Origin: an uncultured Holophaga sp.
GTDB lineage: Bacteria > Acidobacteriota > Holophagae > Holophagales > Holophagaceae
Assembly (NCBI GenBank): GCA_963664825.1
Contig: OY761614.1
Coordinates: 3,008,001 to 3,072,000, forward strand
Direction: 5' to 3'
Length of the DNA stretch: 64,000 nt
Part shown: positions 30,630-45,137 of the stretch, one piece after another
Numbering within the stretch: the stretch's first letter is position 1
How the letters are laid out: each line of letters begins with the position of its first letter
Program-made: the position numbers and the translations under genes
The notes under the pieces: model-generated
The model's input: the letters and a program-made list of their open reading frames with translations, nothing else
Databases searched by the model: none
Told to the model about the DNA's origin: nothing

Positions 30630-31375
30630 TCAACTGGCCTCTGGTCCTGATTTCAGGCAGCGCTGGATCACTGGTCGCATGAAGTCCTGCGCCTCTGAAG
30701 CGACCTCGCTGTAGGGGGGCACCACGAGGTGCCTGGACCGGGTATAGGCGTCCCCGATCCTCTTGAGGGTGGCGTCTGTGCCATAGCTTGGCTGGAGGGC
30801 GTTGGCATCCATGCGAGGACCGTTTCCATCTTTTCGGCGAGGAAGGTTTCCACGGGATACCCCAGCACCTGCCCGCCCTGGAAATCATCGAGCATCGGGC
30901 GGATCTCGATCAGTCCCGGGGCTGGGGTGATGGGATCCCCAAAACTGAGGTCCAGCTTGATCTGGCGCGCACGCTTGGGGCCGAAACGGAACGAAATGGT
31001 GAAGCGCTGACAGGGGTCTTCCGTGTCCTCTCGGATGTCCTCCCAGGTCATGACCTGCGGCTGGAATTCCAGACGATCACCCAAATCGATCCCGAGAATC
31101 TCCGTGAGAACGCCTTCCAGGGTGTCGCTGGGGATCCGGAGAGCCAGGAAATCGAGGTCCTCCGTGGGGCGATTCCATCGCTGGGTCAGCAGATACAGGA
31201 GGATGCCGCCCTTCAGCACCAGTTGGTCTCGGTAGCGGCTTTGGGCGACCCTGGCGAGAAAACGCTCCAGGACGAAGAGGACCTGGGCATTCTCGACGCT
31301 CTGGCCGTCCACGCGCCGGTTGCTAAGGCGCTTGAGGACGCTGTCAGGGCTCTTGGTGTCGCCCTCTTTCTTCAT
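30630..31375 (-). pseudogene. AbiEii-like nucleotidyltransferase toxin with an internal deletion and frameshift
   Basis: LERFLAR, LVLKGG, R.TEDLDF, DLSFGD and LAEK present; the expected RMKDFYD-type segment is missing, and a C-terminal-like segment continues in another frame (30630-30812). Confidence 0.75.
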
Positions 31376-31950
31376 GCAAGCAGGACCGAGAGATAGCCGC
31401 GCAGCGTGGTCTTGACCCGACAAACCTCTTCCCATTGGATCAGCTCATCAGGAAGTCCTCCCTGGCGCAGGAAGGTCTTCAAGGCCTCGAAGGCAACTTC
31501 AAATCCAACCTTATCCCGGAAGCGCAGGGCATCACAGACCGTCTTGGCCTTGCTGTAGATGCGGACCTTGGTTCTGCCAACCTTGATGGTCTCGATTCCG
31601 GTGGCATGCGCGGCCTCCCCAAGGCGAATGAACCGCGTGGGGAAGGCCATCTTGGGAACCCAAGAGGTCTTGGGGATGGCGATCCAGGTCTCCCCGGGGA
31701 TGGTGGTGGTCAATCCGTGGTAGGACAGGGCCGAGATGAGACAGATGACTCCTTCGGGAACGGCTAAACATGCGTCCGCCAAGTCCTGATGCGCCCAGGT
31801 ATCCCGAGTCGCAGATCGGTAGACCCCTGCACGCAGCTTCTGGAGGCGACCGTCCTGGGCCAAGCGGAGGACGGTCGTATCCCGTCCTCTACGCTTTGCG
31901 AAAGATAGCCTGACAACCTCTTTGCGCAGTTCCGGGAGTCCCTTGGACAT
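31372..31950 (-). CDS. AbiEi-like antitoxin / transcriptional regulator (type IV TA)
   Basis: L.KLRAGVY, VPEGVICLISALSYHGLTT.IP and IYS.AKTVCD..RFR; ATGA overlap with the AbiEii gene. Confidence 0.9.
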   Translation of the reverse strand: MSKGLPELRKEVVRLSFAKRRGRDTTVLRLAQDGRLQKLRAGVYRSATRDTWAHQDLADACLAVPEGVICLISALSYHGLTTTIPGETWIAIPKTSWVPKMAFPTRFIRLGEAAHATGIETIKVGRTKVRIYSKAKTVCDALRFRDKVGFEVAFEALKTFLRQGGLPDELIQWEEVCRVKTTLRGYLSVLLA

Positions 31951-32483: not shown

Positions 32484-32532
32484 TGGTGGTCCCGGGGCGA
32501 TTCGAACGCCCGACCCTCAGATTCGTAGTCTG
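32484..32532 (-). repeat. att site: 49-bp copy of the tRNA-Arg 3' end
   Basis: TGGTGGTCCCGGGGCGATTCGAACGCCCGACCCTCAGATTCGTAGTCTG matches 42341-42389 at 48 of 49 positions. Confidence 0.95.
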
Positions 32533-32697
32533 TAGCAGGCCTTCGGACTCGAAACCATCTCAACACTCAAAGCCTTGTTTTTCAGGCATGTATCAAAGAT
32601 CGTTGTTTGGGGAAGGGCGGTAGAGCATTAGAATATTCCCCGTTGCTTTGTAGCTTCAAGCGTATCTCTCTATCGTGCCTTTGCAAGGGGAATCCTC

Positions 32698-33894
32698 ATG
32701 GCTGCCGTCAAGCTCAACACCCGCGTCATTACAGAGCTTGAGCCGAAGGAAAAGACCTATGCCGTGTTCGACACGGAGATCCGGGGCTTCGGGGTCCGGG
32801 TCTGGCCCAGTGGCGTGAAGGTCTTCGTGTTCAAGTACGAGCGGCAGGCCAAACAGCATTGGCTGACCCTTGGCCGCTTCGGGGAGCTCACCTTCGAGCA
32901 GGCCAAGAAGCGCGCCCTCAAGCATCGACTGGAAATCACGGATGGGCAGAACCCCGGCGCCGTCATTCGGGCCAAAAGGGAAGCCCCGAGCGTGGCCGAT
33001 CTGGCAGATCGATTCCTTCGGGACCATGCCGACCTGAAGACCAAACCCCGGACGGCGGCAGAGTATCGCCGCATGGTGGAACTCTTCATCAAACCGAAAC
33101 TTGGAAGGCTCAAGGTGGCGGACGTACTGCCCGCTGATGCCTATGAATTTCACACCAGCCTCGCCAAGACTCCGCGTCAGGCGAACCATACCTTGGCGGT
33201 GCTCTCCAAGATGTTCAGCCTCGCGGAACTCTGGGGATGGCGAACCCAAAACACGAATCCCTGCTTCATCGTGGAACGCCTCCCGGAGCGGCGGCGGGAC
33301 CGTTTCTTGACAGAGAAGGAATTGGAACGATTGGGGCAAGTGATACAGGAAATGGAAGACGCCATCACGGATTCCATCTACGTCTTTGCCGCTCTTCGGA
33401 TGCTCATCTTCACGGGCGCCCGCCTCAGTGAAATCCTCACCCTTACCTGGGCCATGGTGGATCTGGAAAACGGAATGCTTCGCCTTCCGGATTCGAAAAC
33501 CGGGGCCAAGGTGATCTTTTTGAATCCCCCGGCTATTCGCCTTCTCAAAGTTCTTCCTGAGATCCAGGACAACCCTTATGTTTTCCCCGGCGACCGGGAA
33601 AACGACCGCCTGGTGAACCTCGAAAAGCCCTGGCGGAAGATCCGCGACAAAGCCGGGTTGCCCAATGTCCGAATCCACGATTTGAGGCACACCTTCGCGA
33701 GCATGGCGGCCCAGTCAGGATTGAGTCTTCAGGTGGTGGGCGCCCTCCTCGGGCACACCCATCCGAGCACCACTAAGCGGTATTCGCATTTCGGCACACA
33801 GCCCCTTCTGGACAGCAGCAAACAGGTTGGGGCGAAGCTGGCCAAGGCCCTCGAACAGCCTGTCAAGAAACCCAGTAAGAAACAGGGTTCGTGA
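32698..33894 (+). CDS. int: Tyrosine recombinase/integrase with N-terminal arm-binding domain
   Basis: D....GFGVRV.PSG.K.F arm domain; catalytic TGARLSEI, DSKTG, HDLRH, LGH and TKRY. Confidence 0.97.
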   Translation: MAAVKLNTRVITELEPKEKTYAVFDTEIRGFGVRVWPSGVKVFVFKYERQAKQHWLTLGRFGELTFEQAKKRALKHRLEITDGQNPGAVIRAKREAPSVADLADRFLRDHADLKTKPRTAAEYRRMVELFIKPKLGRLKVADVLPADAYEFHTSLAKTPRQANHTLAVLSKMFSLAELWGWRTQNTNPCFIVERLPERRRDRFLTEKELERLGQVIQEMEDAITDSIYVFAALRMLIFTGARLSEILTLTWAMVDLENGMLRLPDSKTGAKVIFLNPPAIRLLKVLPEIQDNPYVFPGDRENDRLVNLEKPWRKIRDKAGLPNVRIHDLRHTFASMAAQSGLSLQVVGALLGHTHPSTTKRYSHFGTQPLLDSSKQVGAKLAKALEQPVKKPSKKQGS

Positions 33895-33918
33895 AGGGAT
33901 TGGGAGGGGTGGCCGGCT

Positions 33919-34401
33919 CGCCCTCGCCAGGGTCACGCCAGGGGAAAAAGCGCCCCTGTCATGCCCCCGGCGGTGAGGGCGCCCGTGTCGCTGTTCAACC
34001 CACACCAGCGCTTATTGAAGTGGTCCCAACGCGGCGTGTCGCTCCGGTCACCCATCGGACCCCGACCCTCGCGGGGGGTCCGATGGGTGACGGCAGCAGG
34101 CGGATATCAGGAGGGGGGCAAGCCCCCCCTGAAGAACTGCAATAGAGGGGAGAGCCCTCGGGATCCGGCAGCAGAGGTTCCGGGCCTTTGGCCCTCGAAA
34201 ATCCATGCTGATGTCTCGTCGAAAAGGTCCGGTTGTGGGAAACGCGAAGCGTTTTCCAGCCACGGGCCGAGGGGGTGGGAACCCTGGGGAAGGTCCCCTC
34301 GGGACCGCTTGCCTGTGGACCCGAAGGGCGGATGAAATCCGTTCCGCGAAGCGGAATCCATCGGGCAATCCACAGGGTTTCCATGCCCGAGCAACCGGAC
34401 C
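33919..34401 (+). other. Highly structured non-coding region (candidate single-strand origin, ssDNA signal or ncRNA)
   Basis: 17-bp perfect inverted repeat (34047-34063/34075-34091); 10-bp long-range stem (34226-34235/34392-34401) enclosing a four-way junction of GAA-triloop hairpins. Confidence 0.7.
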
Positions 34402-34652
34402 GGGAATGGAGCTTGGATCGCGCTGGAACACCTCAAAGATGGGGAAGTGCGCCGAGGTTGGCCGGGACCTGGGGGCACCGCTTGCGGCGGTGGCAAGTTG
34501 AGTCCTCTGGAACATTGTACAGAAGCGACAGTATAAGATGCATAAATACAAATACATACATAACTAGAAATGATACTAGAAGAGTATTGTGGAATTTGTC
34601 CGCTTCTAGCTATATGCTCAAGGTGTCAGTATTCGTTGGAGATTTTCACAAC

Positions 34653-35216
34653 ATGGCTAAAGAAGCGGATGTTAAGACGCGTAGAAACAGTAATAAGGCG
34701 CGATCTAGCAAAACCCAATTCAACATGCCCTTGAGCGTGGAAGAGGCCCGGCAATTTGACATGATCCAAGCCGCCTGGAGCCTTCCGTCCAAGGCGGAAA
34801 CGTTCCGATGGATGCTCAAGGATTGCCATGAGCGGACCACGACCAAGGAGCACGAAACGATCCTCGGAATGTTTGGTCAGGTCCGGGGAGCGTTGGAGTC
34901 CCTCTTGGTGGAGCAGTCCCAATTCAGAACCGATTTGACCCGCGATGTCATGCGCCTGGTTGAGCGCGCCGGAAATGCCGCTGATCGAATCACGCTTGTC
35001 TCGGAAGCGGCTACCGAGAAGATCGGAAGCCGGGTCGAAAACTCGATCGCAATCACCCGGCAAATGGAACTCGACCTCAAGGAACAACTCGCCGCCGCCA
35101 ACAAGATGCTCTTCTCGGCTTTGGTCCGAATGAAGGTCGAACAGGCCTACCTGCCCGATCATGTGAAGGCGGCCATCAAGGAAGGGCTCAATCGATCCGG
35201 CCTCGCGGGCGTGTGA
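34653..35216 (+). CDS. Hypothetical protein with a possible ribbon-helix-helix N-terminus and coiled-coil C-terminus
   Basis: GGAG RBS and ATG 34653 after an AT-rich tract; TQFNMPLS.EE...FD.......SKAETFRWML resembles an RHH fold. Confidence 0.65.
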   Translation: MAKEADVKTRRNSNKARSSKTQFNMPLSVEEARQFDMIQAAWSLPSKAETFRWMLKDCHERTTTKEHETILGMFGQVRGALESLLVEQSQFRTDLTRDVMRLVERAGNAADRITLVSEAATEKIGSRVENSIAITRQMELDLKEQLAAANKMLFSALVRMKVEQAYLPDHVKAAIKEGLNRSGLAGV

Positions 35217-35596
35217 CTCATGGCGGGTGCAGATTCGAGGTTTGGATGGGGCGATTGGGAGCCTAGAATCAAATCCATGTTCTTCACGATTCGGGATTGC
35301 ATCGCTCCACGGTCTCCCTTTGTTGGGAGAGGGCGGGCCAATGGGGATTCGTTTCCCATCCGGCTTAGTGAAGTTCAAGACCATCCCACTTCGTGGTTTA
35401 AGAGACAGGATTGCACTTCCAGTCTTGAGGTTGATACCCGGCGATTTGGTCTGGATAGGTCCCACTTTAAAAGGACCGTTGATCTGATCTTGGGCGTTTT
35501 TTTCGTCCAGGAATTCTGTCGCGCAATCGCTACTCTCGCCATAGCCTTTGGGCAAAAATGCGTACAGTGGCAATTCTGTGCTGATCGAGAACAATA

Positions 35597-36574
35597 ATGA
35601 ATGCAGACCTACTTCGTCGCCTAATGAGAGCCATCGCTGAAGGTGGCTCTGGTGAATTGGAACAACTAGGGCATACGATTATCGAAAGTGAGCGGCGCCT
35701 TGGTCATACGAAGCTGTCGTCAGAATTGCTTTCAATTTTAATAAAAAAATCTAAAAATCGTAACCAAGGCGAATCAAGCCTAAAAGGTGATCAATCCCTT
35801 AAAGAATTGCCATCGAGCAAGAGGCGGGGGGATCTATTAGCAACCTTTATTGAGCATGATTCTTTGGAACACACGATGATTCTCCCTCCTGAGACGGAGA
35901 TGAGATTCGCAAGAATTGAGTCTGAGTTTTCCGCAAGAGAACGGCTTGGTCTGCATGGACTTACCTATAGGCGATCAATCCTTCTTCATGGGCCTCCTGG
36001 TTGTGGGAAATCGCTTGGTGCAAAAAGGCTTGCATGGAATACAGGATTGCCACTTATGAAAGTAAGATTTGATGCATTGATATCTTCATTTTTTGGAGAA
36101 TCTGCATCAAATCTTCGTACTGTTTTTGATGCAGCTAACGAAAAGCCGTGTGTTCTTTTGTTTGATGAATGTGATTTTCTTGCCAGATCGAGAATTAATT
36201 CAAAAGATATTGGAGAGGCATCTAGGATTGTCAATACTCTACTGCAGCTAATGGAGGAATTTGAGGCGCCTGGGCTGCTTGTTGCTACTACAAACATTGA
36301 ATCAGCATTGGATCCTGCAATATTTCGTAGATTTGATGATGTCTTTGAGGTCCCGCCGCCTGGTCCTCAAGAAATTGTTAAGTTGATGCAATTGACGCTG
36401 GCTTCGATTAAATATGATGGCAATATTGGTTGGGATAAAATTACATCAAAGCTCGGTAAGGCTTCGGCAGCAATGGCTGTTAAAGCAGCGCAGAATGCCG
36501 CAAAGGCTGCAGTCCTTTCCGGTCGTTTGGTTGTTTCCGAACAACACCTTGTTAAAGCTATAGCTGAATTGTAA
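35597..36574 (+). CDS. ietA: AAA+ ATPase, IetA-like
   Basis: GPPGCGKS, VLLFDECD, ATTN and LDPAIFRRFD; low GC; directly upstream of an S8 protease. Confidence 0.85.
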   Translation: MNADLLRRLMRAIAEGGSGELEQLGHTIIESERRLGHTKLSSELLSILIKKSKNRNQGESSLKGDQSLKELPSSKRRGDLLATFIEHDSLEHTMILPPETEMRFARIESEFSARERLGLHGLTYRRSILLHGPPGCGKSLGAKRLAWNTGLPLMKVRFDALISSFFGESASNLRTVFDAANEKPCVLLFDECDFLARSRINSKDIGEASRIVNTLLQLMEEFEAPGLLVATTNIESALDPAIFRRFDDVFEVPPPGPQEIVKLMQLTLASIKYDGNIGWDKITSKLGKASAAMAVKAAQNAAKAAVLSGRLVVSEQHLVKAIAEL

Positions 36575-36607
36575 GGCCTTGATTGACCAAGGAATTTCAC
36601 ATGGGGT

Positions 36608-39211
36608 ATGTTTATGCCAAACGAACATAATTTCGAGCATCTTCGTTTGATATTTGCAAAACAAGGAATAGCTCGCTTGCATGGGGGTGGGGAATCCAAT
36701 CCGATTACTGTTCAGAATAAGGACAATCGAGCTGGGCATTGCGACACCCTCATGAAGTCCGCCTGTTCGATCTCCGGCGCTTGGGGGGAGCGATTCGCAA
36801 GCCGTGCTCGGGAAAATCTCCCAGATCTTAGGGCAGGTATTCCGCTTTTGTTAAAAATCGACGAATCGATGGATGTCGATAGTTTGAGACATTTTTTGGG
36901 GTTTGAGATTATATCTGAAGAGGATAATGGTTTTGTTATCGTTGCTTCTGAGGACTTAAATCTTGGTCACTTGATTTCAAAAATAAATGATTTCAATAAT
37001 AGTGTCACAGGCTCTGCTGCTGTTGCTCAGATTCATGAATTGATTGAAGAGTCCGAAGAAGAGAATCGCTTATCAAGGATTTTGTCAGATGAGCTGAAAA
37101 ATGAATGGGCATCAATTGGGGATACGGATGACTACGTTGTAGATGTTTCTATCTCATGCTCCGGGAATTGGGTCATCCCAAAAAAACCTAAAAAAGGACG
37201 TCTAAAGCCTGAGACATGGGAGCGGAAGCTTCGTGAATGGAACGAAAATTACGAAACATCCTATATAAAATGGGACAATTTGCGCGAAGAGCGCAAGGAT
37301 GCCATTGGTAACATTATAAATTATTATGGGTCAGAGATAGTTGATGAATATGAGCAAAGTGATGGCGAAACCATTCCGGATAACTTCACTCTTCGCATCA
37401 AATTAACGGGCAAGGCTCTTCGTGATTTTGCCTCGAATTATCCTTATATTTTTGAAATTGGAGAGCCTGAAGATATTGAAACTCCACAAGGTGTGAGGAG
37501 GCAAGATTCGTTAGCTGTCCCTGATGTATCTATTTTGGCGGCACCGGCATCTGCTCCGACGGTTTGCGTCATCGATAGCGGCATTCAGGAGAATCATATT
37601 TGGATCAACCCTGCAATCGATACCGCTAACTCGTTCTGTTTTGTCCCGTATGAATCGCCCACCGACACGGCTGATTACGTGAGCAATGGGGGGCATGGAA
37701 CTCGCGTGGCCGGAGCTATTCTGTATGGTGAGGCTGTCCCGACAGGTGGCACCGTTCAATTAAATGCATGGATTCAAAATGCTCGGGCGCTTGATAAAAA
37801 CTGTGCTTTATCTAGAAGCGTGTTGCCAGAGAAATTAATCAGCCAGGTTGTCGCAAAATACCACAATGGTGATAGGCCGACCAAAATATTTAATCATTCG
37901 ATTAATTCAATAGTGCCGCACAGAAGTAGGCATATGTCTTCGTGGGCATTTGAGATGGATAAATTGTCATATCGGCATGATATATTAATTATTCAAAGCG
38001 CTGGCAATATTCAGCGGTCTGGACCGCCAAATAATCCTGGTGTTGAAGAATTGATTGCATCGGGACATGATTATCCTGAATATTTGACGCGTCGGTCGTG
38101 TAGGATTGCCAATCCGGGGCAGAGCCTTCAGGTGCTGACTGTCGGTTCTATTTCGTATGATCAATTCAGTGATGGTCATTGGGCAAGCTTCTCTGACCAA
38201 TATTCAAAACCTTCTGCTTTCAGTCGGGCTGGATTTGGGATCTGGGATTCAATAAAGCCTGAAGTTGTTGAATTTGGAGGAGATTACTTGCATAGCGGCA
38301 GGCAATCAACGTCTGTGGCTATTCCGGCAACTGGGTCAGCATGCTATCCCGAATTAATTAGATCAACATTGCACGGTGGTCCCGCATTCAGTAAAGATAT
38401 CGTCGGAACCTCGTTTTCGACCCCAAAAGTTTCAAAGCTCGCGGCAAGTATCCAGGCTGTATTACCCGAAGAGTCCTGCCTTATATATAGGGCTCTTATT
38501 GTTCAGTCTGCGCGTTGGCCGAATTGGGCTGAATCACTTACTCGAGACGAGAAGGTGCCGGTTTTGCAGCAAATCGGTTATGGTGTTCCTGATCTAAATC
38601 GAGCAACTACGAATACTCCCTATAGGACGACTTTTATAACGTCGAATGAATACGAATTAAAAGCTGGGGAATGTCATATTTTCCAAATCCCGATTCCTGA
38701 TCGACTTCGCTCCCCAGGTACCGAATATCAAATTCGGCTAGATATAACTCTTTCTTATTCTGCAGAGCCAAAGAGAACCAGGAAAGGGCGGCGAGGCTAC
38801 CTTTCTACATGGTTGGATTGGGAGACAAGTCGGAAAGGTGAGTCGATTGAAGCTTTTACGAATAGGGCGGTAAGGGAAGCTGCAAAAACTTCAACCGAGG
38901 GTCAATCCATTAATTGGACACTCGGCACTCAGGGTAATCATGGCATAATCCCTATTGCAAATCGAAATAATGGAACCGTCCAGAAAGATTGGGCTCAAAT
39001 TAGTTCAAATGAACTCCCTGAATTCTTTTGCATCGCTGTTCGCGGCCACCAGGGATGGAACAAAGATCCAGAGGCCTCTGCAAAATATGTTTTGGCTGTT
39101 TCAATAGAAAATATTGGAAGTGAAATTGAAATATATGAAGACCTTCGAGCCGCTGTCCAGGAACTTCAGTCTGAAACAGAGGTCGAGATGGAGCTGGAGG
39201 TAGATGTTTAG
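36608..39211 (+). CDS. ietS: S8 subtilisin-like serine protease, IetS-like
   Basis: Catalytic triad VIDSG / HGTRVAG / GTSFSTP; SAGN; KPEVVEFGG; GYGVPD; no signal peptide. Confidence 0.85.
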   Translation: MFMPNEHNFEHLRLIFAKQGIARLHGGGESNPITVQNKDNRAGHCDTLMKSACSISGAWGERFASRARENLPDLRAGIPLLLKIDESMDVDSLRHFLGFEIISEEDNGFVIVASEDLNLGHLISKINDFNNSVTGSAAVAQIHELIEESEEENRLSRILSDELKNEWASIGDTDDYVVDVSISCSGNWVIPKKPKKGRLKPETWERKLREWNENYETSYIKWDNLREERKDAIGNIINYYGSEIVDEYEQSDGETIPDNFTLRIKLTGKALRDFASNYPYIFEIGEPEDIETPQGVRRQDSLAVPDVSILAAPASAPTVCVIDSGIQENHIWINPAIDTANSFCFVPYESPTDTADYVSNGGHGTRVAGAILYGEAVPTGGTVQLNAWIQNARALDKNCALSRSVLPEKLISQVVAKYHNGDRPTKIFNHSINSIVPHRSRHMSSWAFEMDKLSYRHDILIIQSAGNIQRSGPPNNPGVEELIASGHDYPEYLTRRSCRIANPGQSLQVLTVGSISYDQFSDGHWASFSDQYSKPSAFSRAGFGIWDSIKPEVVEFGGDYLHSGRQSTSVAIPATGSACYPELIRSTLHGGPAFSKDIVGTSFSTPKVSKLAASIQAVLPEESCLIYRALIVQSARWPNWAESLTRDEKVPVLQQIGYGVPDLNRATTNTPYRTTFITSNEYELKAGECHIFQIPIPDRLRSPGTEYQIRLDITLSYSAEPKRTRKGRRGYLSTWLDWETSRKGESIEAFTNRAVREAAKTSTEGQSINWTLGTQGNHGIIPIANRNNGTVQKDWAQISSNELPEFFCIAVRGHQGWNKDPEASAKYVLAVSIENIGSEIEIYEDLRAAVQELQSETEVEMELEVDV

Positions 39212-39264
39212 TGTGGTGACATTGGTAACAACTGAAGAATCGAAACAGCTAGCCGTTCCTCGCT

Positions 39265-39579
39265 TCAGTTCTCGATGAACCGCTCTGGTTCGAAATCCTG
39301 CTCCATCCTCATCACGCCGATAACCCACAGCTCCTTCCCGGCGATCCGGTAGATCACCCGGAAGGGGCGTACGCTGAGGAGTTCCCGGTAAGTCTGTCCC
39401 AGCTCCGGGATGAAGCGGGCCATCTCAGGGAAAGCGGCTGCATGTTCGACAGCTTCCATGACTCGGGCGAAGAGGTTTTGGGCGGCCTCGGGGTTCTCAA
39501 AGGCGATGTATGACAGCAGGGCGTCAAGGTCCCGTTCGGCGGGATCCGACCAACGAACGCTGAGGGGTTTCAGGCCCAT
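39265..39579 (-). CDS. Type II TA toxin, RelE/ParE family
   Basis: V.WS..AERDL..L..YIA.ENP.AA, FPEM.R and FRVIYRI. Confidence 0.9.
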   Translation of the reverse strand: MGLKPLSVRWSDPAERDLDALLSYIAFENPEAAQNLFARVMEAVEHAAAFPEMARFIPELGQTYRELLSVRPFRVIYRIAGKELWVIGVMRMEQDFEPERFIEN

Positions 39580-39833
39580 CGCTTCGCCATCCGGGCCTTC
39601 ACGTCTGCGTGAGAGCTTGCCCGCCCTTCCGTGAAGGCCTGTTCGCCCTTGGCGATGACCTCCAGCAGTTCGAGGCGATGAAGCATGCCCTTGTAGGTCG
39701 CCACATCCAGCATGACGGCAGCCTCCTTGCCGTGCTCTGTGATGAGCACCGGCACACGATCAGCGCGGAGCTGGTCGATGATCTCGGTTGCGTGGCGCTT
39801 GATTTCGGTGACGGGCTTCAGGGCGGGCAACAT
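39570..39833 (-). CDS. Type II TA antitoxin, Phd/YefM family
   Basis: GGAGG RBS; PVTEIKRH..EII......PVLITEHGKEAAVM; overlaps the toxin start. Confidence 0.9.
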   Translation of the reverse strand: MLPALKPVTEIKRHATEIIDQLRADRVPVLITEHGKEAAVMLDVATYKGMLHRLELLEVIAKGEQAFTEGRASSHADVKARMAKRWA

Positions 39834-39976
39834 GGCGGGCCTCCAGAACCAAGAATGATACTTTAGTGCCACTTCGGCAAGGGCCTCATGGTTGAACCTG
39901 ATTACTGGCTCCGCGATCTGGGCGTACCGCTTCGTGCCCCATTCGGGACTGGATGCGCTGTCAGGCTTGAGTTGTG

Positions 39977-41482
39977 TCATGTCATCTCTCCTATCGGGGG
40001 CGGCCCCGTCATGGTTGGAACCCAGTACCCCTTGGCCTTGAGTCCCGCTTCGAGGTGTTCCAAGGCTGAAAACGCCCGCCGAGACGCGATTTGCAACCAT
40101 GTGTGAAGGTCCAAGGTGGCCATGAGCCCGCGAAGGGTTTCTCGACGCCGGGTCTCATCCTTGGATGGTTCCTTTACTGGAGCGCCGTCAGATATTGCAG
40201 GGGTATCAAGCGAACAGGAAGCACCCGCTTCGCGGGCCGCAGCGCCCCTCAGATCGGCCAGAAGCTCCGGTGAAAGGCCGTCCCTGGCCTCGCACCACTC
40301 AGGGGCCTTCCAACGGCTTCTGGCAGCCCCCACGCATTCGAAGACGCGAGGGCTTCGATTCCAGATGCCATCGCGCAGGTAGTCACCTGGAAGGCCTGAC
40401 ACGATCCACTCGCCTGGATGCTCCGGATCGGGAACGTAGCAGGCGATGTCATCGGCCTTGGTGCAGTATTTCAGGGTTTCCTGGATGGCGTCTTCCAAGG
40501 ACATGGCGTTATCGCCCCGGCGTGTCCTGCGGTTGACGGCTTGAACGTGGATGCAGGCGGTGATGGCTTTGGCGCGGTTTTCCATCTGGGGATAGAGGTC
40601 TTCCAGCTCGAACCCGTAGACACGACGCGTAGCCGTTCGCAGGCAGGCCCACCACGCCGCCGCCAAATCGGCTTGGGACACGTACCGCGCCCAGGCCAGC
40701 AAATGGAAATGCGGGTGATGCAATACAACCCCATCCCAGAACGATTTGCGGGTGACCTCAAAGCCACGGAAAGCAGCGAAGACCGTGGCTTTGAAGATGT
40801 CCAATTTGCGAAAGAGGGACCAGGCCAAGAACATGCGTTCCTCTTCCCGCACCTCGCAAACGCTCGACACGATGGAGGGATCTAGCGTTGGTGTGGTGAG
40901 TGTCCAGGCGACAGGCAACACTTTTCCCGCCTCTTTCGTGTCGTACGCCACAGCCCAGAGGCGGCGCCGAACGTGCCGGATTGCCTCGCGAGCCTTTTTC
41001 CTGGAACGCACACTCAGGCGCCGTTGGTAGGCGGGTGCATAACGCATGGAAGCGCCGAAGCCAGATCCGCCCATGCCGAAAAGCCGATCTCCATGGCGGC
41101 CCACCACGCCGTACGGAGTTTGAGCTTCGAGCAGCAGGAGCGCCGCGGAACGCAAGGCCAAGCCTTCCCCTGGTTTGGCCATGATCTCAAGCCCATCGGC
41201 ATCCAGGAGGATCACTTCTCCGGTGTCATCCCGGCTCAAGCGCACCTTTCCGCCCGCGAGGGATTCCGCCAGTGCAGAGGCATAGCGGGATGCTGAGCAG
41301 GCGCGGTACTGAGCTGTGCGAATCGATTCCGTCAATGAGCCGAGGACCTCTCCTGAAGTGGGATCGACCACGAGCGGGCCTTCTGACGTGTCGAGAACGG
41401 CCAGGCCTTCCCATGTCGCAGGACATGGCGAAGCCGGGGTGTCCCGAGCGCCCTTGTGCGGGGAGCCCGAGCCACCTTCCAT
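39977..41482 (-). CDS. rep: Rolling-circle replication initiator, HUH endonuclease (Rep_1/pC194-like); start uncertain
   Basis: Motif 1 WTLTTP, FEVT, motif 2 HPHFHLL and motif 3 ETLKYCTK in the canonical order. Confidence 0.85.
   Translation of the reverse strand: MEGGSGSPHKGARDTPASPCPATWEGLAVLDTSEGPLVVDPTSGEVLGSLTESIRTAQYRACSASRYASALAESLAGGKVRLSRDDTGEVILLDADGLEIMAKPGEGLALRSAALLLLEAQTPYGVVGRHGDRLFGMGGSGFGASMRYAPAYQRRLSVRSRKKAREAIRHVRRRLWAVAYDTKEAGKVLPVAWTLTTPTLDPSIVSSVCEVREEERMFLAWSLFRKLDIFKATVFAAFRGFEVTRKSFWDGVVLHHPHFHLLAWARYVSQADLAAAWWACLRTATRRVYGFELEDLYPQMENRAKAITACIHVQAVNRRTRRGDNAMSLEDAIQETLKYCTKADDIACYVPDPEHPGEWIVSGLPGDYLRDGIWNRSPRVFECVGAARSRWKAPEWCEARDGLSPELLADLRGAAAREAGASCSLDTPAISDGAPVKEPSKDETRRRETLRGLMATLDLHTWLQIASRRAFSALEHLEAGLKAKGYWVPTMTGPPPIGEMT
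40204..40236 (-). other. Candidate double-strand origin (nick site CTTGATA with an upstream hairpin)
   Basis: Minus strand CCCGC-GAA-GCGGG, 13 nt, then CTTGATA; CTTGATA is the pC194/phiX174 nick core. Confidence 0.5.
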
Positions 41483-41576
41483 CGTAAATGTGTGCAAGAT
41501 TGCAGCCACGCTTGCGCGAAGACACGCCCCAGGCGAAGCCAGGGCTCAAAGGCCTGAAAGGCGCGTCAGCGTTTGA

Positions 41577-41822
41577 TTAGCGGCGCTGGTAGTAGGGGCC
41601 GGGATCCACCGTGGACCGGCGCCGCTGAGCTTCCAGCCAGCGCGTGATGTCGTCCATGGTGTAGAGCACCCGGCGAGGGCTGATGCGCAGATACTCCGGG
41701 CCTTCGCCCGTCATGCGTAGGCGCTGGAGATAGGCCTTCTTCATGCCCAGGTATTCAGCGGCTTGTTGGGTCGTGAGGAAGGGAGTCTTCACGGGCTCTG
41801 GGGTTTCCTTGCGGGTAGCCAT
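41577..41822 (-). CDS. Excisionase/AlpA-like HTH protein
   Basis: GGAGG RBS; FLTTQQAAEYLG......L.RLR..GEGP.Y.RI..RRVLY...DI..WL. Confidence 0.9.
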   Translation of the reverse strand: MATRKETPEPVKTPFLTTQQAAEYLGMKKAYLQRLRMTGEGPEYLRISPRRVLYTMDDITRWLEAQRRRSTVDPGPYYQRR

Positions 41823-42038
41823 TGCGGCCTCCAAAGCGCCGGGGTGCGTTGCAGGAACCCCAGCGATTTCACCCTTCCGTCTTGCGAACCGCGCATCCCA
41901 ACCGCACAATAGTTGGACGACGCTGCCGCAAGGCAACGCAAGTGCCGCCCCTCCCCATGGCTGTTTTCGAGGCAGAACCATGTGGAGGGGTTCGTGTATG
42001 TACTCCCAGCGGCGCTGGAAGGTCTTGATGATGTCGGA

Positions 42039-42067
42039 AGTATCGTTTCGTGGATTTTGGGTGTCAA
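42039..42067 (-). promoter_or_regulatory. Sigma70-type promoter for xis-rep
   Basis: Minus strand TTGACA-17 nt-GATACT. Confidence 0.65.
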
Positions 42068-42094
42068 GCCGTAAGAATAGATATAACTTGACTT

Positions 42095-42114
42095 GGCTAG
42101 GCTATAGCCTAGCC
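42095..42114. promoter_or_regulatory. Perfect 20-bp palindrome, possible operator
   Basis: GGCTAGGCTA-TAGCCTAGCC. Confidence 0.5.
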
Positions 42115-42299
42115 TGCGATCTGCCTAAATCCTTTGCTTGCCTCCTTTCTCGGCCCGAGCGTGGACCTTTTTGGGGAGGCAGTTCTTTTGCGAGGAGACG
42201 CCGCAGAAGATGACAGGGGGCCCGTTTGGGCTCACCAGGTGGTACGCACCCGTGAAATGAGTCGAAGGGCGGCCCTGTATCTTCGCCGTAGCTGAACGC

Positions 42300-42325
42300 A
42301 AAAGAGCCGCCTTGTGGGCGGCTCT
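42300..42325 (-). terminator. Terminator downstream of tRNA-Arg
   Basis: AGAGCCGCC-ttgtg-GGCGGCTCT with an A-run on the left. Confidence 0.7.
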
Positions 42326-42340
42326 AAGTGTTGTATTGAT

Positions 42341-42417
42341 TGGTGGTCCCGGAGCGATTCGAACGCCCGACCCTCAGATTCGTAGTCTGATGCTCTATCC
42401 AGCTGAGCTACGGGACC
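42341..42417 (-). tRNA. tRNA-Arg(ACG)
   Basis: GGTCCCG acceptor stem, D-arm TAGCTCAGCTGGATAGAGC, TCAGA-CT-ACG-AA-TCTGA anticodon arm, TTCGAAT T-loop, encoded CCA; 77 nt. Confidence 0.97.
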
Positions 42418-42794: not shown

Positions 42795-45137
42795 ATGAGC
42801 GAACTGACACGCAAGGAAGTGGTTTTCATCCTCAAGTCGGGGAAAGACTTCCATCGCACCGACTTGAGTGGTCTGGACCTCCGGGGCTTCGATCTGTCCG
42901 AGGCCAACCTTTCCGAGGCCAATCTGGCCGGCGCGGTCCTCAATCAGGCCTCCCTGCGGGGCGCCAATCTCGCGGGCGCGGATCTGCGTTTGGCGAATCT
43001 GGATGAAGCCGATCTCGAGGGCGCCAACCTGAGTCGGGCCAAGCTCGCCGGGGCCAATCTGGCGGGCGTGAACCTCGCCAAGGCCGACCTGAGTCATTTC
43101 GATATCCAGCAGTACGAACCGGCCACCATCCCCAATCTGCGCGGAGCCGTGCTGAGCGGGGCGCTGCTGAGCGGCGTGAACCTGGGCGGCCTGGATTTGA
43201 GCGGGAAGGATCTGCGGGGCGCCAATCTGAGCGGCGCCGATCTGCGTCAGGCCGTGCTTGAGGGGGCCAATCTGGAAGGCGCCAGCCTCTCCCAGGCGAG
43301 CCTTTTGGGGGCGGCCCTGGGCCACGCCAACCTCCTGGGCGCGAACCTGTCTGGGGCCGTGCTAGGGGGCGCCGCACTCAACCGGGCCGATCTCTCCGGG
43401 GCCAATCTCTCGGATGCCGATCTCCATTGGGCCAGCCTTGCGGAGGCCAATCTCGAAGGGGCCAATCTCAGTCGCGCCAATCTGAAGGGCGCTAATTTGA
43501 GCGGCGCCAATCTGGTGGGCGCCGATCTGCGCTACCTGGACATCCTCCAGTACGACAAGAACGATATCCCCAACCTGGCGGGAGCCAATCTCTCCGGCAC
43601 CAATCTCTCTGGCACCAATCTGCGGGGGATCGACCTCAGTCGCTCCAATCTGAGCAAGGCCGATCTCAGCACGGCGGTGCTGCGGCACGCCAGCCTCGAG
43701 GGCGCCAATCTTTCCGAGGCCAATCTCAAGGGGGCCGATCTCACGGGCACCAATCTCAGTGGCGCGGTGCTCTCGGGCGCCAATCTGAGCGGTGCGCTCC
43801 TGAGCGGCGCCGTGCTGAGTGCTGCGGATTTGCGCGGTGCCGATCTCACAGGCGCCGATCTCAGTGAGATCAATCTCAGCGGCGCCAATCTCTCCGACGC
43901 AATTCTCTCCGGAGCCAGTCTTTCCGGCGCGCTCCTGGATGGCGCCGTGCTGGCGGGAGCGGTGCTGGTGGGCGCCAACCTCAAGCGGGTAGATTTCTCC
44001 GAGAAGAATCTGCGGGGGGCGAACCTGGGGAATGCCGATCTCTCCCAGGCCAACCTGGATGGTGCCGATCTGGCCAGCGCGGTCTTCTGCGGGGCCAATC
44101 TCTCCGAGACCCATCTCGGCGGAGCCAACCTCCACCTCTCCCGGCTCACGGGCAATGATCTCCGCAGCGCGAATCTCTGCGGGGCCAATCTCAGTGAGGC
44201 CGATCTCAGCAGCGCGAACCTCGAAGGCGTCATCCTCAGCGCCAACTTGCAGGGCGCCAACCTCACAGGGGCCAGCCTCCGCGGGGCCAGTCTGGACCGG
44301 GCCATGCTCGCTGGCGTCAACCTCAGCGGCACGGACCTCACGGGCTTCATCCTCGAGGGCATGGACCTCAATCATGCGGTGCTCGACGGGGCCAATCTGA
44401 ACGGGGCCAATCTGCGCAGCGCCATTCTCCGGGAGGCCCGGGCCGTGGGCGCCGATCTCAGCCTCTGCAACCTCTCCTCGGCCGATCTCAGTGGCAGCGA
44501 GTTGCGTGGTTCGAATCTCTTCAGCGCCAATCTCGAGGGCGCCAACCTGAGAGGGGCCAAGCTGGCCTCCCTGCCCACGGAATCCTGGGGCGAGTATCGC
44601 ACCAATCTCAGCAAGGCCAATCTCCGCGGCGCCGATCTCACAGGAGCCGATCTCTACCAGGCCAACCTGAACGAGGCGAATTTCGTCAATGCCGATCTCA
44701 GCAACGCCAACATGGTGTGGGCGGATCTGCGGGGCGTCGATCTCCGCCAGACCAATCTCACCGAGACGAACCTCAAGGAGGCCAATCTCGATGGGGCCAA
44801 TCTCTGCGGCGCCGATCTCCGGGAGACCATCCTGCGGGACGCCTACCTGGATGGCGCCAATCTCTCCGGGGCCAATCTCAGCGGCACGAACCTGTCCGGC
44901 GCCGATCTGCGGCACACAAACCTCATCGATGCGGCCATGGATGGTGCGAACCTCTCGGATGCCAATCTGAGCGGCGCGAACCTGGTGTGGACCAACCTCT
45001 CAGGGGCCAATCTCAATCGCGCGAACATGAGCCATGCCAAGCTCAGTGGCGCCAATTTGGGAGGGGCCGATCTCCGGGAGGCCAATCTCACGGACGCCAA
45101 TCTGGATAGCACCAATCTCGCGGGCGCCAAGCGCTAA
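42795..45137 (+). CDS. Very long pentapeptide-repeat protein (780 aa)
   Basis: Near-continuous A(N/D)L(S/R/E)G pentapeptide repeats; AAGGA RBS. Confidence 0.95.

Follow-up and report, generated by a model that had tools for sequence, protein, structure and literature searches.

A tRNA-Arg-integrated element of a Holophagaceae bacterium with a predicted rolling-circle replicon, a putative origin of transfer and IetAS-like cargo

The window analyzed here, a 64,000-nucleotide stretch of an uncultured Holophaga sp. (assembly GCA_963664825.1, contig OY761614.1, positions 3,008,001 to 3,072,000), contains an integrated element of about 9.9 kb at the tRNA-Arg(ACG) gene of a Holophagaceae bacterium (genome G000, 3.47 Mb). 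A preliminary description of this DNA had bounded it by 49-bp attachment (att) repeats at this tRNA, and these were recovered as described: the copies at 32484-32532 and 42341-42389 differ by one mismatch, lie 9,857 bp apart and are part of a longer 90-bp repeat of 88% identity that includes two terminators. Reading from the left, the element encodes an integrase, a structured spacer, a 187-aa open reading frame (ORF), IetA and IetS, followed by a minus-strand run of HTH_17, Rep, Phd and ParE genes. Its features, in window coordinates, are:

32484-32532, minus strand: distal att copy, a duplicate of the tRNA-Arg 3' end with one mismatch to the tRNA copy.
32698-33894, plus strand: tyrosine integrase, 398 aa, with an arm-binding domain and intact catalytic motifs (PF00589, E 4.9e-24; Arm-DNA-bind_3).
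33911-33987, minus strand: hairpin block a, common to other Holophagaceae loci (fold z -4.2).
34033-34177, minus strand: hairpin block b, candidate single-strand origin (fold z -3.9; putative function).
34234-34403, no strand assigned: hairpin block c, present in multiple copies in many genomes of the family and frequently adjacent to transposase-like ORFs.
34476-34500, plus strand: putative origin of transfer (oriT), comprised of a small inverted repeat (34476-34492) and the core GGTGGCAAGTTG (34489-34500), and situated some 150 bp upstream of the MobC-like gene.
34653-35216, plus strand: MobC-like ribbon-helix-helix (RHH)/coiled-coil protein, 187 aa, putative relaxosome accessory factor.
35597-36574, plus strand: IetA-like AAA ATPase, low-GC cargo (PADLOC IetA, E 7e-66).
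36608-39211, plus strand: IetS-like S8 protease with D/H/S motifs present (PADLOC IetS, E 4e-63).
39265-39579, minus strand: ParE/RelE-family toxin, passing the Pfam cut-off.
39570-39833, minus strand: Phd/YefM antitoxin, passing the Pfam cut-off; its frame can be read from an ATG that overlaps the stop codon of rep (39980).
39977-41482, minus strand: predicted HUH rolling-circle initiator, divergent Rep_1/pC194-type, 501 aa, with an alternative GTG start at 41509.
40184-40210, minus strand: putative double-strand origin (dso) inside the 3' part of rep, CTTGATA (40210-40204) and then a conserved ATA codon.
41577-41822, minus strand: HTH_17 excisionase-like protein, 81 aa (HTH_17, E 9.5e-11), directly upstream of Rep.
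42039-42067, minus strand: sigma-70-like match (10/12, a consensus match only) upstream of the xis-rep-toxin-antitoxin run.
42290-42340, minus strand: terminator belonging to the element, with the end sequence that lies behind the tRNA; common to sister elements at tRNA-Cys and tRNA-Lys.
42341-42417, minus strand: intact tRNA-Arg(ACG), whose 3' 49 bp form the second att copy.

The anatomy of an integrative element is complete at this locus, with its own integrase, a directionality factor, att sites and an empty site in relatives all present, and integration is almost certainly part of its life cycle. The integrase, described earlier as intact, retains the R/K/H-R/H/Y motifs and is 47% identical to the integrase of a sister element (G140). 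The Xis/AlpA-like HTH recognized earlier directly upstream of Rep likewise has counterparts preceding Rep in sister loci (73% identity in G022/L006 and 41% in G140), and the end sequence behind the tRNA is common to elements at tRNA-Arg, tRNA-Cys and tRNA-Lys. Two genomes of the same genus as the host (G007, G008) lack an element at this tRNA; we regard the site as empty there because what follows the tRNA is the terminator that in the host lies beyond the distal att copy. In a further genome (G004), an unrelated 7.3-kb integrase element occupies the same tRNA. In two assemblies (X1 and X3), the element forms a single 9,852-bp contig, with depths of 14.5-16.3, 27 and about 35 (X1) and of 2-3.4, 3.7 and 2.2-2.7 (X3) for left flank, element and right flank, respectively; these are mixed-strain depths and not copy numbers, and the 36-bp identical att stretch would conceal circle junctions. 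All four sequence runs covered consist of assembled contigs. The Rfam scan recovered nothing beyond the tRNA.

The predicted replicon centers on Rep. The expected match to Rep_1 (PF01446) was obtained (E 1.8e-6), but at 28 bits it falls under the curated cut-off of 33.2 bits, while a distant homolog (in L028) passes the same profile at 37.2 bits. The three Rep_1-type motifs claimed in the preliminary description could be placed at residues 193 (I), 256-260 (II) and 335-342 (III), and H258, H260, E242, E335, Y339 and K342 are invariant in all 40 alignment rows. The catalytic residues of pC194 RepA are Glu142, Glu210 and Tyr214 (PMC5703833), and the invariance of E242, E335 and Y339 presents the same pattern. 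Fourteen homologs share 47-78% identity with Rep, and its profile yields 153 matches. The AlphaFold2 (AF2) model is confident (pLDDT 88.6), and its similarity to solved HUH domains is middling (SIRV1 ORF119, Z 6.2, rmsd 4.4, 112 aligned; nanovirus Rep, Z 5.5, rmsd 3.5, 94 aligned), with the non-HUH protein Thg1 ranking higher (Z 7.0). A Foldseek search of the PDB gave only weak matches (best E 0.02) and the PDB sequences none (best E 1.1); BFVD returned 13 matches at E <= 0.001, all unnamed (best E 2.6e-7). No Rep relatives were found in IMG/VR, among 72,556 plasmid records or in the phage collection. We interpret Rep as a divergent Rep_1-type HUH initiator and consider it likely that the element carries its own rolling-circle replicon. 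Residues 28-180 and 459-483, outside the HUH core, are also confidently modeled, and the fold search barely covered them.

A candidate nick site for this initiator lies in an unusual place. CTTGATA, the nick motif of Rep_1 (PMC10378824), occurs at 40210-40204 on the rep-coding strand within codons 425-427, that is, inside rep and not upstream of it. The codon comparison took in 10 loci that still have the region; L002 was set aside as a near-duplicate of L006, as were L029, where this part is absent, and loci that are incomplete or very distant. The codon for Ile430 is ATA in 9/9 (pooled frequency 0.11), that for Asp426 GAT in 9/9 and that for Gly433 GGC in 9/9; these three take ranks 1-3 among 152 columns. 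Exact CTTGATA is found in 6/10 of the loci, whose protein identity ranges from about 28 to 77%. The peptide matching the origin region is present in 32 of the 40 alignment rows, and the stretch is of low confidence in the AF2 model (pLDDT <50 at residues 422-438). A signal at the level of the DNA would be the simplest reading of the fixed codons, and we propose a putative intragenic dso; such intragenic origins are known for pT181, though unusual for the Rep_1 family (PMC5703833). We rejected the interpretation of the truncated G140 rep as a deletion exactly at the nick, since the divergence begins about 10 codons earlier. In the Rep of L032, the heptamer is GTTCATA, with both bases flanking the TT swapped, and the V-H-T peptide matching it recurs in several distant Reps.

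The spacer behind the integrase contains the three hairpin blocks. Relative to rep, block b is oriented the same way in 3/3 Rep loci carrying it (the window, L005 and L029), consistent with a candidate single-strand origin, and was not found in the 19 other loci scanned. Block c was rejected for this role, as it stands in the opposite orientation to the Rep-like ORF in G118. The blocks (33911-34403) are modular and recur separately in 34/132 other family genomes, where their neighbors, with labels read by eye, are transposase-, primase- and helicase-like ORFs.

The Rep profile has matches in 14/132 other family genomes and at 6 metagenome loci. A sample of the phylum yielded matches in 3/401 genomes, of which the one outside the family (G406) is possibly mis-binned because a 4,380-bp stretch of it is 100% identical to a contig of a family member (G081). 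In the Rep phylogeny, a quick tree, the element groups with seven other loci in a close clade (SH-aLRT 100) that holds no prophage-like locus. The earlier proposal to search genomes for integrase, HTH and this Rep and to compare their cargo did recover sister loci with varying cargo. G022/L006 combines tRNA-Cys with HTH and Rep; G140, 5.6 kb in length, has 47-bp att repeats at tRNA-Lys and carries HTH, Rep, Fic and integrase genes; and G108 covers 19.3 kb from one tRNA-Met 3' copy to another and includes ResIII and methylase genes. Others carry transfer genes, namely G091 (integrase, coupling protein and relaxase homolog), L008 (integrase fragment, TrwC-like relaxase and methylase) and L009 (an AAA_21 pair plus a fragment of a coupling protein); for a judgment on L007 the locus is too short. 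Thus, cargo differs between close-clade loci, and a relaxase or coupling protein stands beside Rep in 3/7 of the other ones (G091, L008, L009), 2/7 being shorter than 3.1 kb. TrbJ/TrbL labels for ORFs of G091 were rejected, as there is no such family match. The suggestion in the preliminary description of an integrative rolling-circle element with variable defense cargo is supported by these homologous loci and the codon signal.

More distant Reps occur in other contexts. One (L005) is found, together with Phd/ParE and MobA/MobL, on a plasmid-like contig, and three (28-33% identity; L028, L032, L034) belong to prophage-like elements that share a gene set. This apparently undescribed prophage-like family comprises L028 (G081), L032 (G143), L034 (G033) and L033 (G130), the last a remnant of 3.8 kb flanked by 53-bp att repeats at tRNA-Lys. 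Its gene set includes an integrase, a Rep_1-type Rep, a small HTH, a 540-aa protein with a weak portal match (E 0.007), a transglutaminase-like protein, several conserved ORFs without assigned function and, in L028, a transglycosylase; no capsid was found in it by Pfam or PHROGs. A separate clade (L022, L035-L038) has Rep-like ORFs of 600-670 aa, two of them near tRNA-Arg(ACG) 3' fragments.

A putative transfer module is a further component of the element. The preliminary description had recognized no conjugation genes, which holds for the relaxase, coupling protein and pore, all absent from the element in the Pfam scan, with no relaxase match in six frames; nevertheless, the element does contain a MobC-like gene together with an oriT-type core. 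The 187-aa MobC-like protein has no Pfam match and no match in IMG/VR, but 11 homologs at 56-88% identity, and it aligns with relaxase-linked MobC-like proteins (hhalign P 87%, E 4e-6); its Atlas lead is RHH_1/NikA, with a score below 0.9, and the AF2 monomer shows helices only, the ribbon strand not being resolved. In the 3.47-Mb genome the 12-mer GGTGGCAAGTTG has two occurrences, one in this element and one in a co-resident relaxase element, with both copies sharing their orientation relative to an RHH gene and the two RHH genes being profile-homologous. We take this core to resemble a MOBP-like nic site. The co-resident element is 25 kb long (G000:C1:2962559-2987607; L104, L105), lies at tRNA-Met with a 47-bp att, and encodes an RHH-type protein, a relaxase-like protein (C1:2963552-2965108; Atlas link to MobL/Relaxase, score 0.94), a VirD4-like coupling protein and an integrase. 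A further tRNA-Met 3' copy at C1:3017966 (window position about 9966) hints at tandem elements.

Across the relaxase family, a 13-bp oriT core with at least 11/13 matches lies upstream in 19/24 loci, 574-586 bp before the relaxase in 18 of those 19; in the divergent loci L122 and L123 its flanking sequence differs as well. This family (L106-L130; motif 557-586 bp upstream) is present in 19/133 family genomes and is unnamed by Pfam and NCBIfam, whereas VirB4 (PF03135) has matches in 1/133 genomes. No relaxase remnant follows the MobC-like gene, where ietAS stands instead; an ORF at 35220-35597 was considered as one and rejected by the six-frame search. On current gene order, the predicted IetAS pair is what fills the slot held by relaxase and coupling-protein genes in related elements. 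In staphylococcal plasmids the accessory factor determines oriT specificity (PMC8136818), which suggests why the element would keep a factor of its own.

The ATPase-protease module seen earlier is recovered by PADLOC as IetA and IetS and is predicted to be an IetAS-like anti-phage system; its scores are far under the NCBIfam equivalog cut-offs (189 vs 510 and 107 vs 900). At 44% GC, the pair differs from the integrase, rep and toxin-antitoxin genes (59-62%). The toxin-antitoxin pair of the preliminary description is likewise upheld by the Phd and ParE matches. As it had also stated, no capsid or primase-helicase families are found among the element's ORFs in Pfam or PHROGs, and we recognized neither a PF01580 FtsK/SpoIIIE translocase among these ORFs nor a packaging-interference gene in the element.

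Based on this organization, we propose, with somewhat better than even confidence, that this is a relaxase-less integrative mobilizable element (IME) with its own rolling-circle replicon. The integrase and the HTH_17 protein would excise a 9,857-bp circle from tRNA-Arg(ACG), an event for which the anatomy is seen. Rep would then nick the CTTGATA-bearing strand within its own gene and the circle would replicate, with block b probably priming the second strand and Phd/ParE favoring retention of the element. The MobC-like protein may bind the oriT and recruit a MobL/Relaxase-type relaxase and a coupling protein in trans, for which the 25-kb co-resident tRNA-Met element is a candidate donor; the mating pore would be supplied by a third element, which was not found in G000. 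Finally, the integrase would re-insert the element at the tRNA of the recipient. Mobilization in trans we hold to be moderately probable, and spread by a borrowed conjugation enzyme is, on these sequence features, most likely the route rather than phage packaging. A fuller version of this scheme is tentative and rather doubtful as a whole: it would make the element an active self-amplifying defense shuttle that is nicked at two sites of the same strand, with an origin overprinted on rep and an RHH factor that diverts a relaxase and coupling protein from a pore-less co-resident element, both elements depending on a third, unseen pore, and with a Rep lineage common to plasmids and undescribed rolling-circle prophages of the same hosts.

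A number of results weigh against this interpretation. For the dso, the third base of the heptamer is altered in 3/10 loci and one further locus differs more; the codon p-values ignore relatedness; the dso sites of Rep_1 are usually upstream of rep (PMC5703833); and the Rep of G140 is without the origin region altogether. For transfer, the MobC-like protein has no direct match in the 132 other family genomes, and the oriT similarity emerged post hoc from 24 pairs of regions (blast E 0.027). The element's oriT matches the core and not the flanks, the full 25-column matrix scoring it at -4.8 (genome rank 1,935), and the core matrix ranks it 5th in the genome, behind 3 presumably chance sites; the flank mismatch and the core rank imply that the co-resident relaxase may not be the cognate partner. 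Scanning 13 further Rep-bearing loci with this core matrix revealed no convincing oriT (top score 14.8, in G108). No VirB4-type ATPase was found in G000, and PF03135 matches in only one of the 133 family genomes. Compared with G007 and G008, 3 positions of the distal att have drifted, and the circle, its single-stranded DNA and the transfer of the element are all predictions from sequence.

Some of these observations would fit a stranded derivative of a mobilizable element, which still excises and perhaps replicates but retains its oriT and mobC as relics after relaxase loss, persisting as a vertically inherited defense island. The absence of a relaxase remnant in six frames, oriT flanks unlike those of the co-resident relaxase, the mating pore missing from G000, the drift of the distal att and the existence of a degenerate sister (G140) are all in line with this, but the backbone ORFs, oriT core and hairpin blocks are intact throughout, and relaxase-less islands with an oriT and an accessory factor are known to be mobile (PMC5704250); we consider such stranding unlikely, if the most serious of the alternatives. 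Another possibility is that Rep doubles as the relaxase, nicking at the dso and being passed to the coupling protein of a helper, in which case a borrowed relaxase would not be needed. Rep_1 initiators, including that of pC194, serve as mobilization relaxases with ICEBs1 (PMC5704250, PMC5703833), and the dso and oriT cores both hold CTTG on the same (minus) strand. Yet the mobilizing sister loci G091, L008 and L005 retain a distinct relaxase next to the same Rep, and the known cases use TcpA-type coupling proteins, whereas those here are VirD4-like, making this dual role improbable.

The preliminary description had also entertained a satellite of a filamentous phage, an idea that is not supported: PF05707 (Zot/pI), the one family searched, has 0 matches in G000 (a genome 96.6% complete), no relative of Rep turned up in IMG/VR or the phage collection, and the evidence points to conjugative mobilization. 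Packaging by the prophage-like elements with distant Reps would be a variant of the same idea, to which those Reps (L028, L032, L034), a tRNA-Arg(ACG) att fragment beside the integrase of L028 and the similarity of the Rep model to viral proteins in BFVD lend some weight. However, of 21 prophage-like proteins only the integrase and transglycosylase match G000, both generic, and the close Rep clade is without a prophage-like locus; with no packaging-interference gene recognized either, a phage satellite of whichever kind appears very improbable. The relaxase-less IME with a rolling-circle replicon remains our preferred interpretation.

Several features of the surroundings are of separate interest. 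An AbiEi/AbiEii pair (30668-31950, minus strand) lies just beyond the distal att, and its AbiEii match covers positions 8-186 of the 294-position model only and looks truncated. The flank of G000 departs from that of G004, G007 and G008 directly past the terminator, which suggests an older accessory region there. A 780-aa pentapeptide-repeat protein (42795-45137, plus strand) is encoded upstream of the tRNA and also in G004, G007 and G008. G007 additionally has an array of 33 tRNA genes (L086:3770-10833) adjoining a tRNA-Arg(ACG) 3' fragment and probably located on a mobile element.

More generally, these loci outline a small Holophagaceae element family that swaps cargo (IetAS, Fic, methylase/restriction-type genes and AAA_21 pairs) and transfer modules around one Rep. 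Three short DNA sites are defined, namely the putative intragenic dso, the putative single-strand origin and the oriT core, and the integrase/att and replicon could seed genetic tools for Acidobacteriota. The literature covered, with subscription journals and supplements outside it, yielded no account of this Rep clade or of the combination, which agrees with the earlier suggestion of an uncharacterized family; an int-xis-rolling-circle-rep arrangement at a tRNA is nevertheless known from pSAM2-type integrative and conjugative elements of actinomycetes (AICEs; PMC3218068), a precedent that lowers the novelty of the element. The individual parts have precedents, and it is the Rep clade and the combination that were not found described.

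Among known systems, the pSAM2-type AICEs share the int, xis and rolling-circle HUH rep at a tRNA 3' end, pSAM2 being placed in the pC194 family (PMC3218068); in contrast to them, the element is without an FtsK/SpoIIIE Tra, its Rep has a single catalytic Tyr, its host is one of the Acidobacteriota, and its int points towards xis-rep rather than sharing an operon with them. With the pC194/pUB110 (Rep_1, PF01446) plasmids it shares motifs I-III, the Glu/Glu/Tyr triad and the CTTGATA nick motif, whereas its Rep is 501 aa long, under the Pfam cut-off and unmatched among the plasmid records, and the element is chromosomally integrated; its putative dso inside rep is likewise unlike that of pC194/pUB110 and as in the unrelated pT181 family (PMC5703833). 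Unlike satellites of the phage-inducible chromosomal island (PICI), P4 and cf-PICI types, it has no primase-helicase, packaging or capsid genes, and it departs from filamentous phages and their satellites in the lack of a Zot/pI gene match (PF05707) in the host genome G000. The cargo resembles IetAS and Phd/ParE systems in gene order, domains and PADLOC/Pfam matches, with IetAS under the NCBIfam equivalog cut-offs, and ietAS is known on integrative elements (PMC9958689). The closest parallels are the relaxase-less IMEs with an oriT and one accessory factor (MGIVchHai6 and MGIVmi1, strategy V; PMC5704250) and the iOriTs, from a study covering six nosocomial species (bioRxiv 10.64898/2026.01.13.699239), with which it has in common a tyrosine integrase, a directionality factor, no relaxase or pore, a putative oriT with an accessory factor, and defense cargo. 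MGIVchHai6 and MGIVmi1 rely on MobH/IncA-C helpers and a MobI factor, whereas the partner predicted here is of the MobL/Relaxase type and the factor an RHH MobC-like protein, and the element additionally carries a Rep_1-type replicon.

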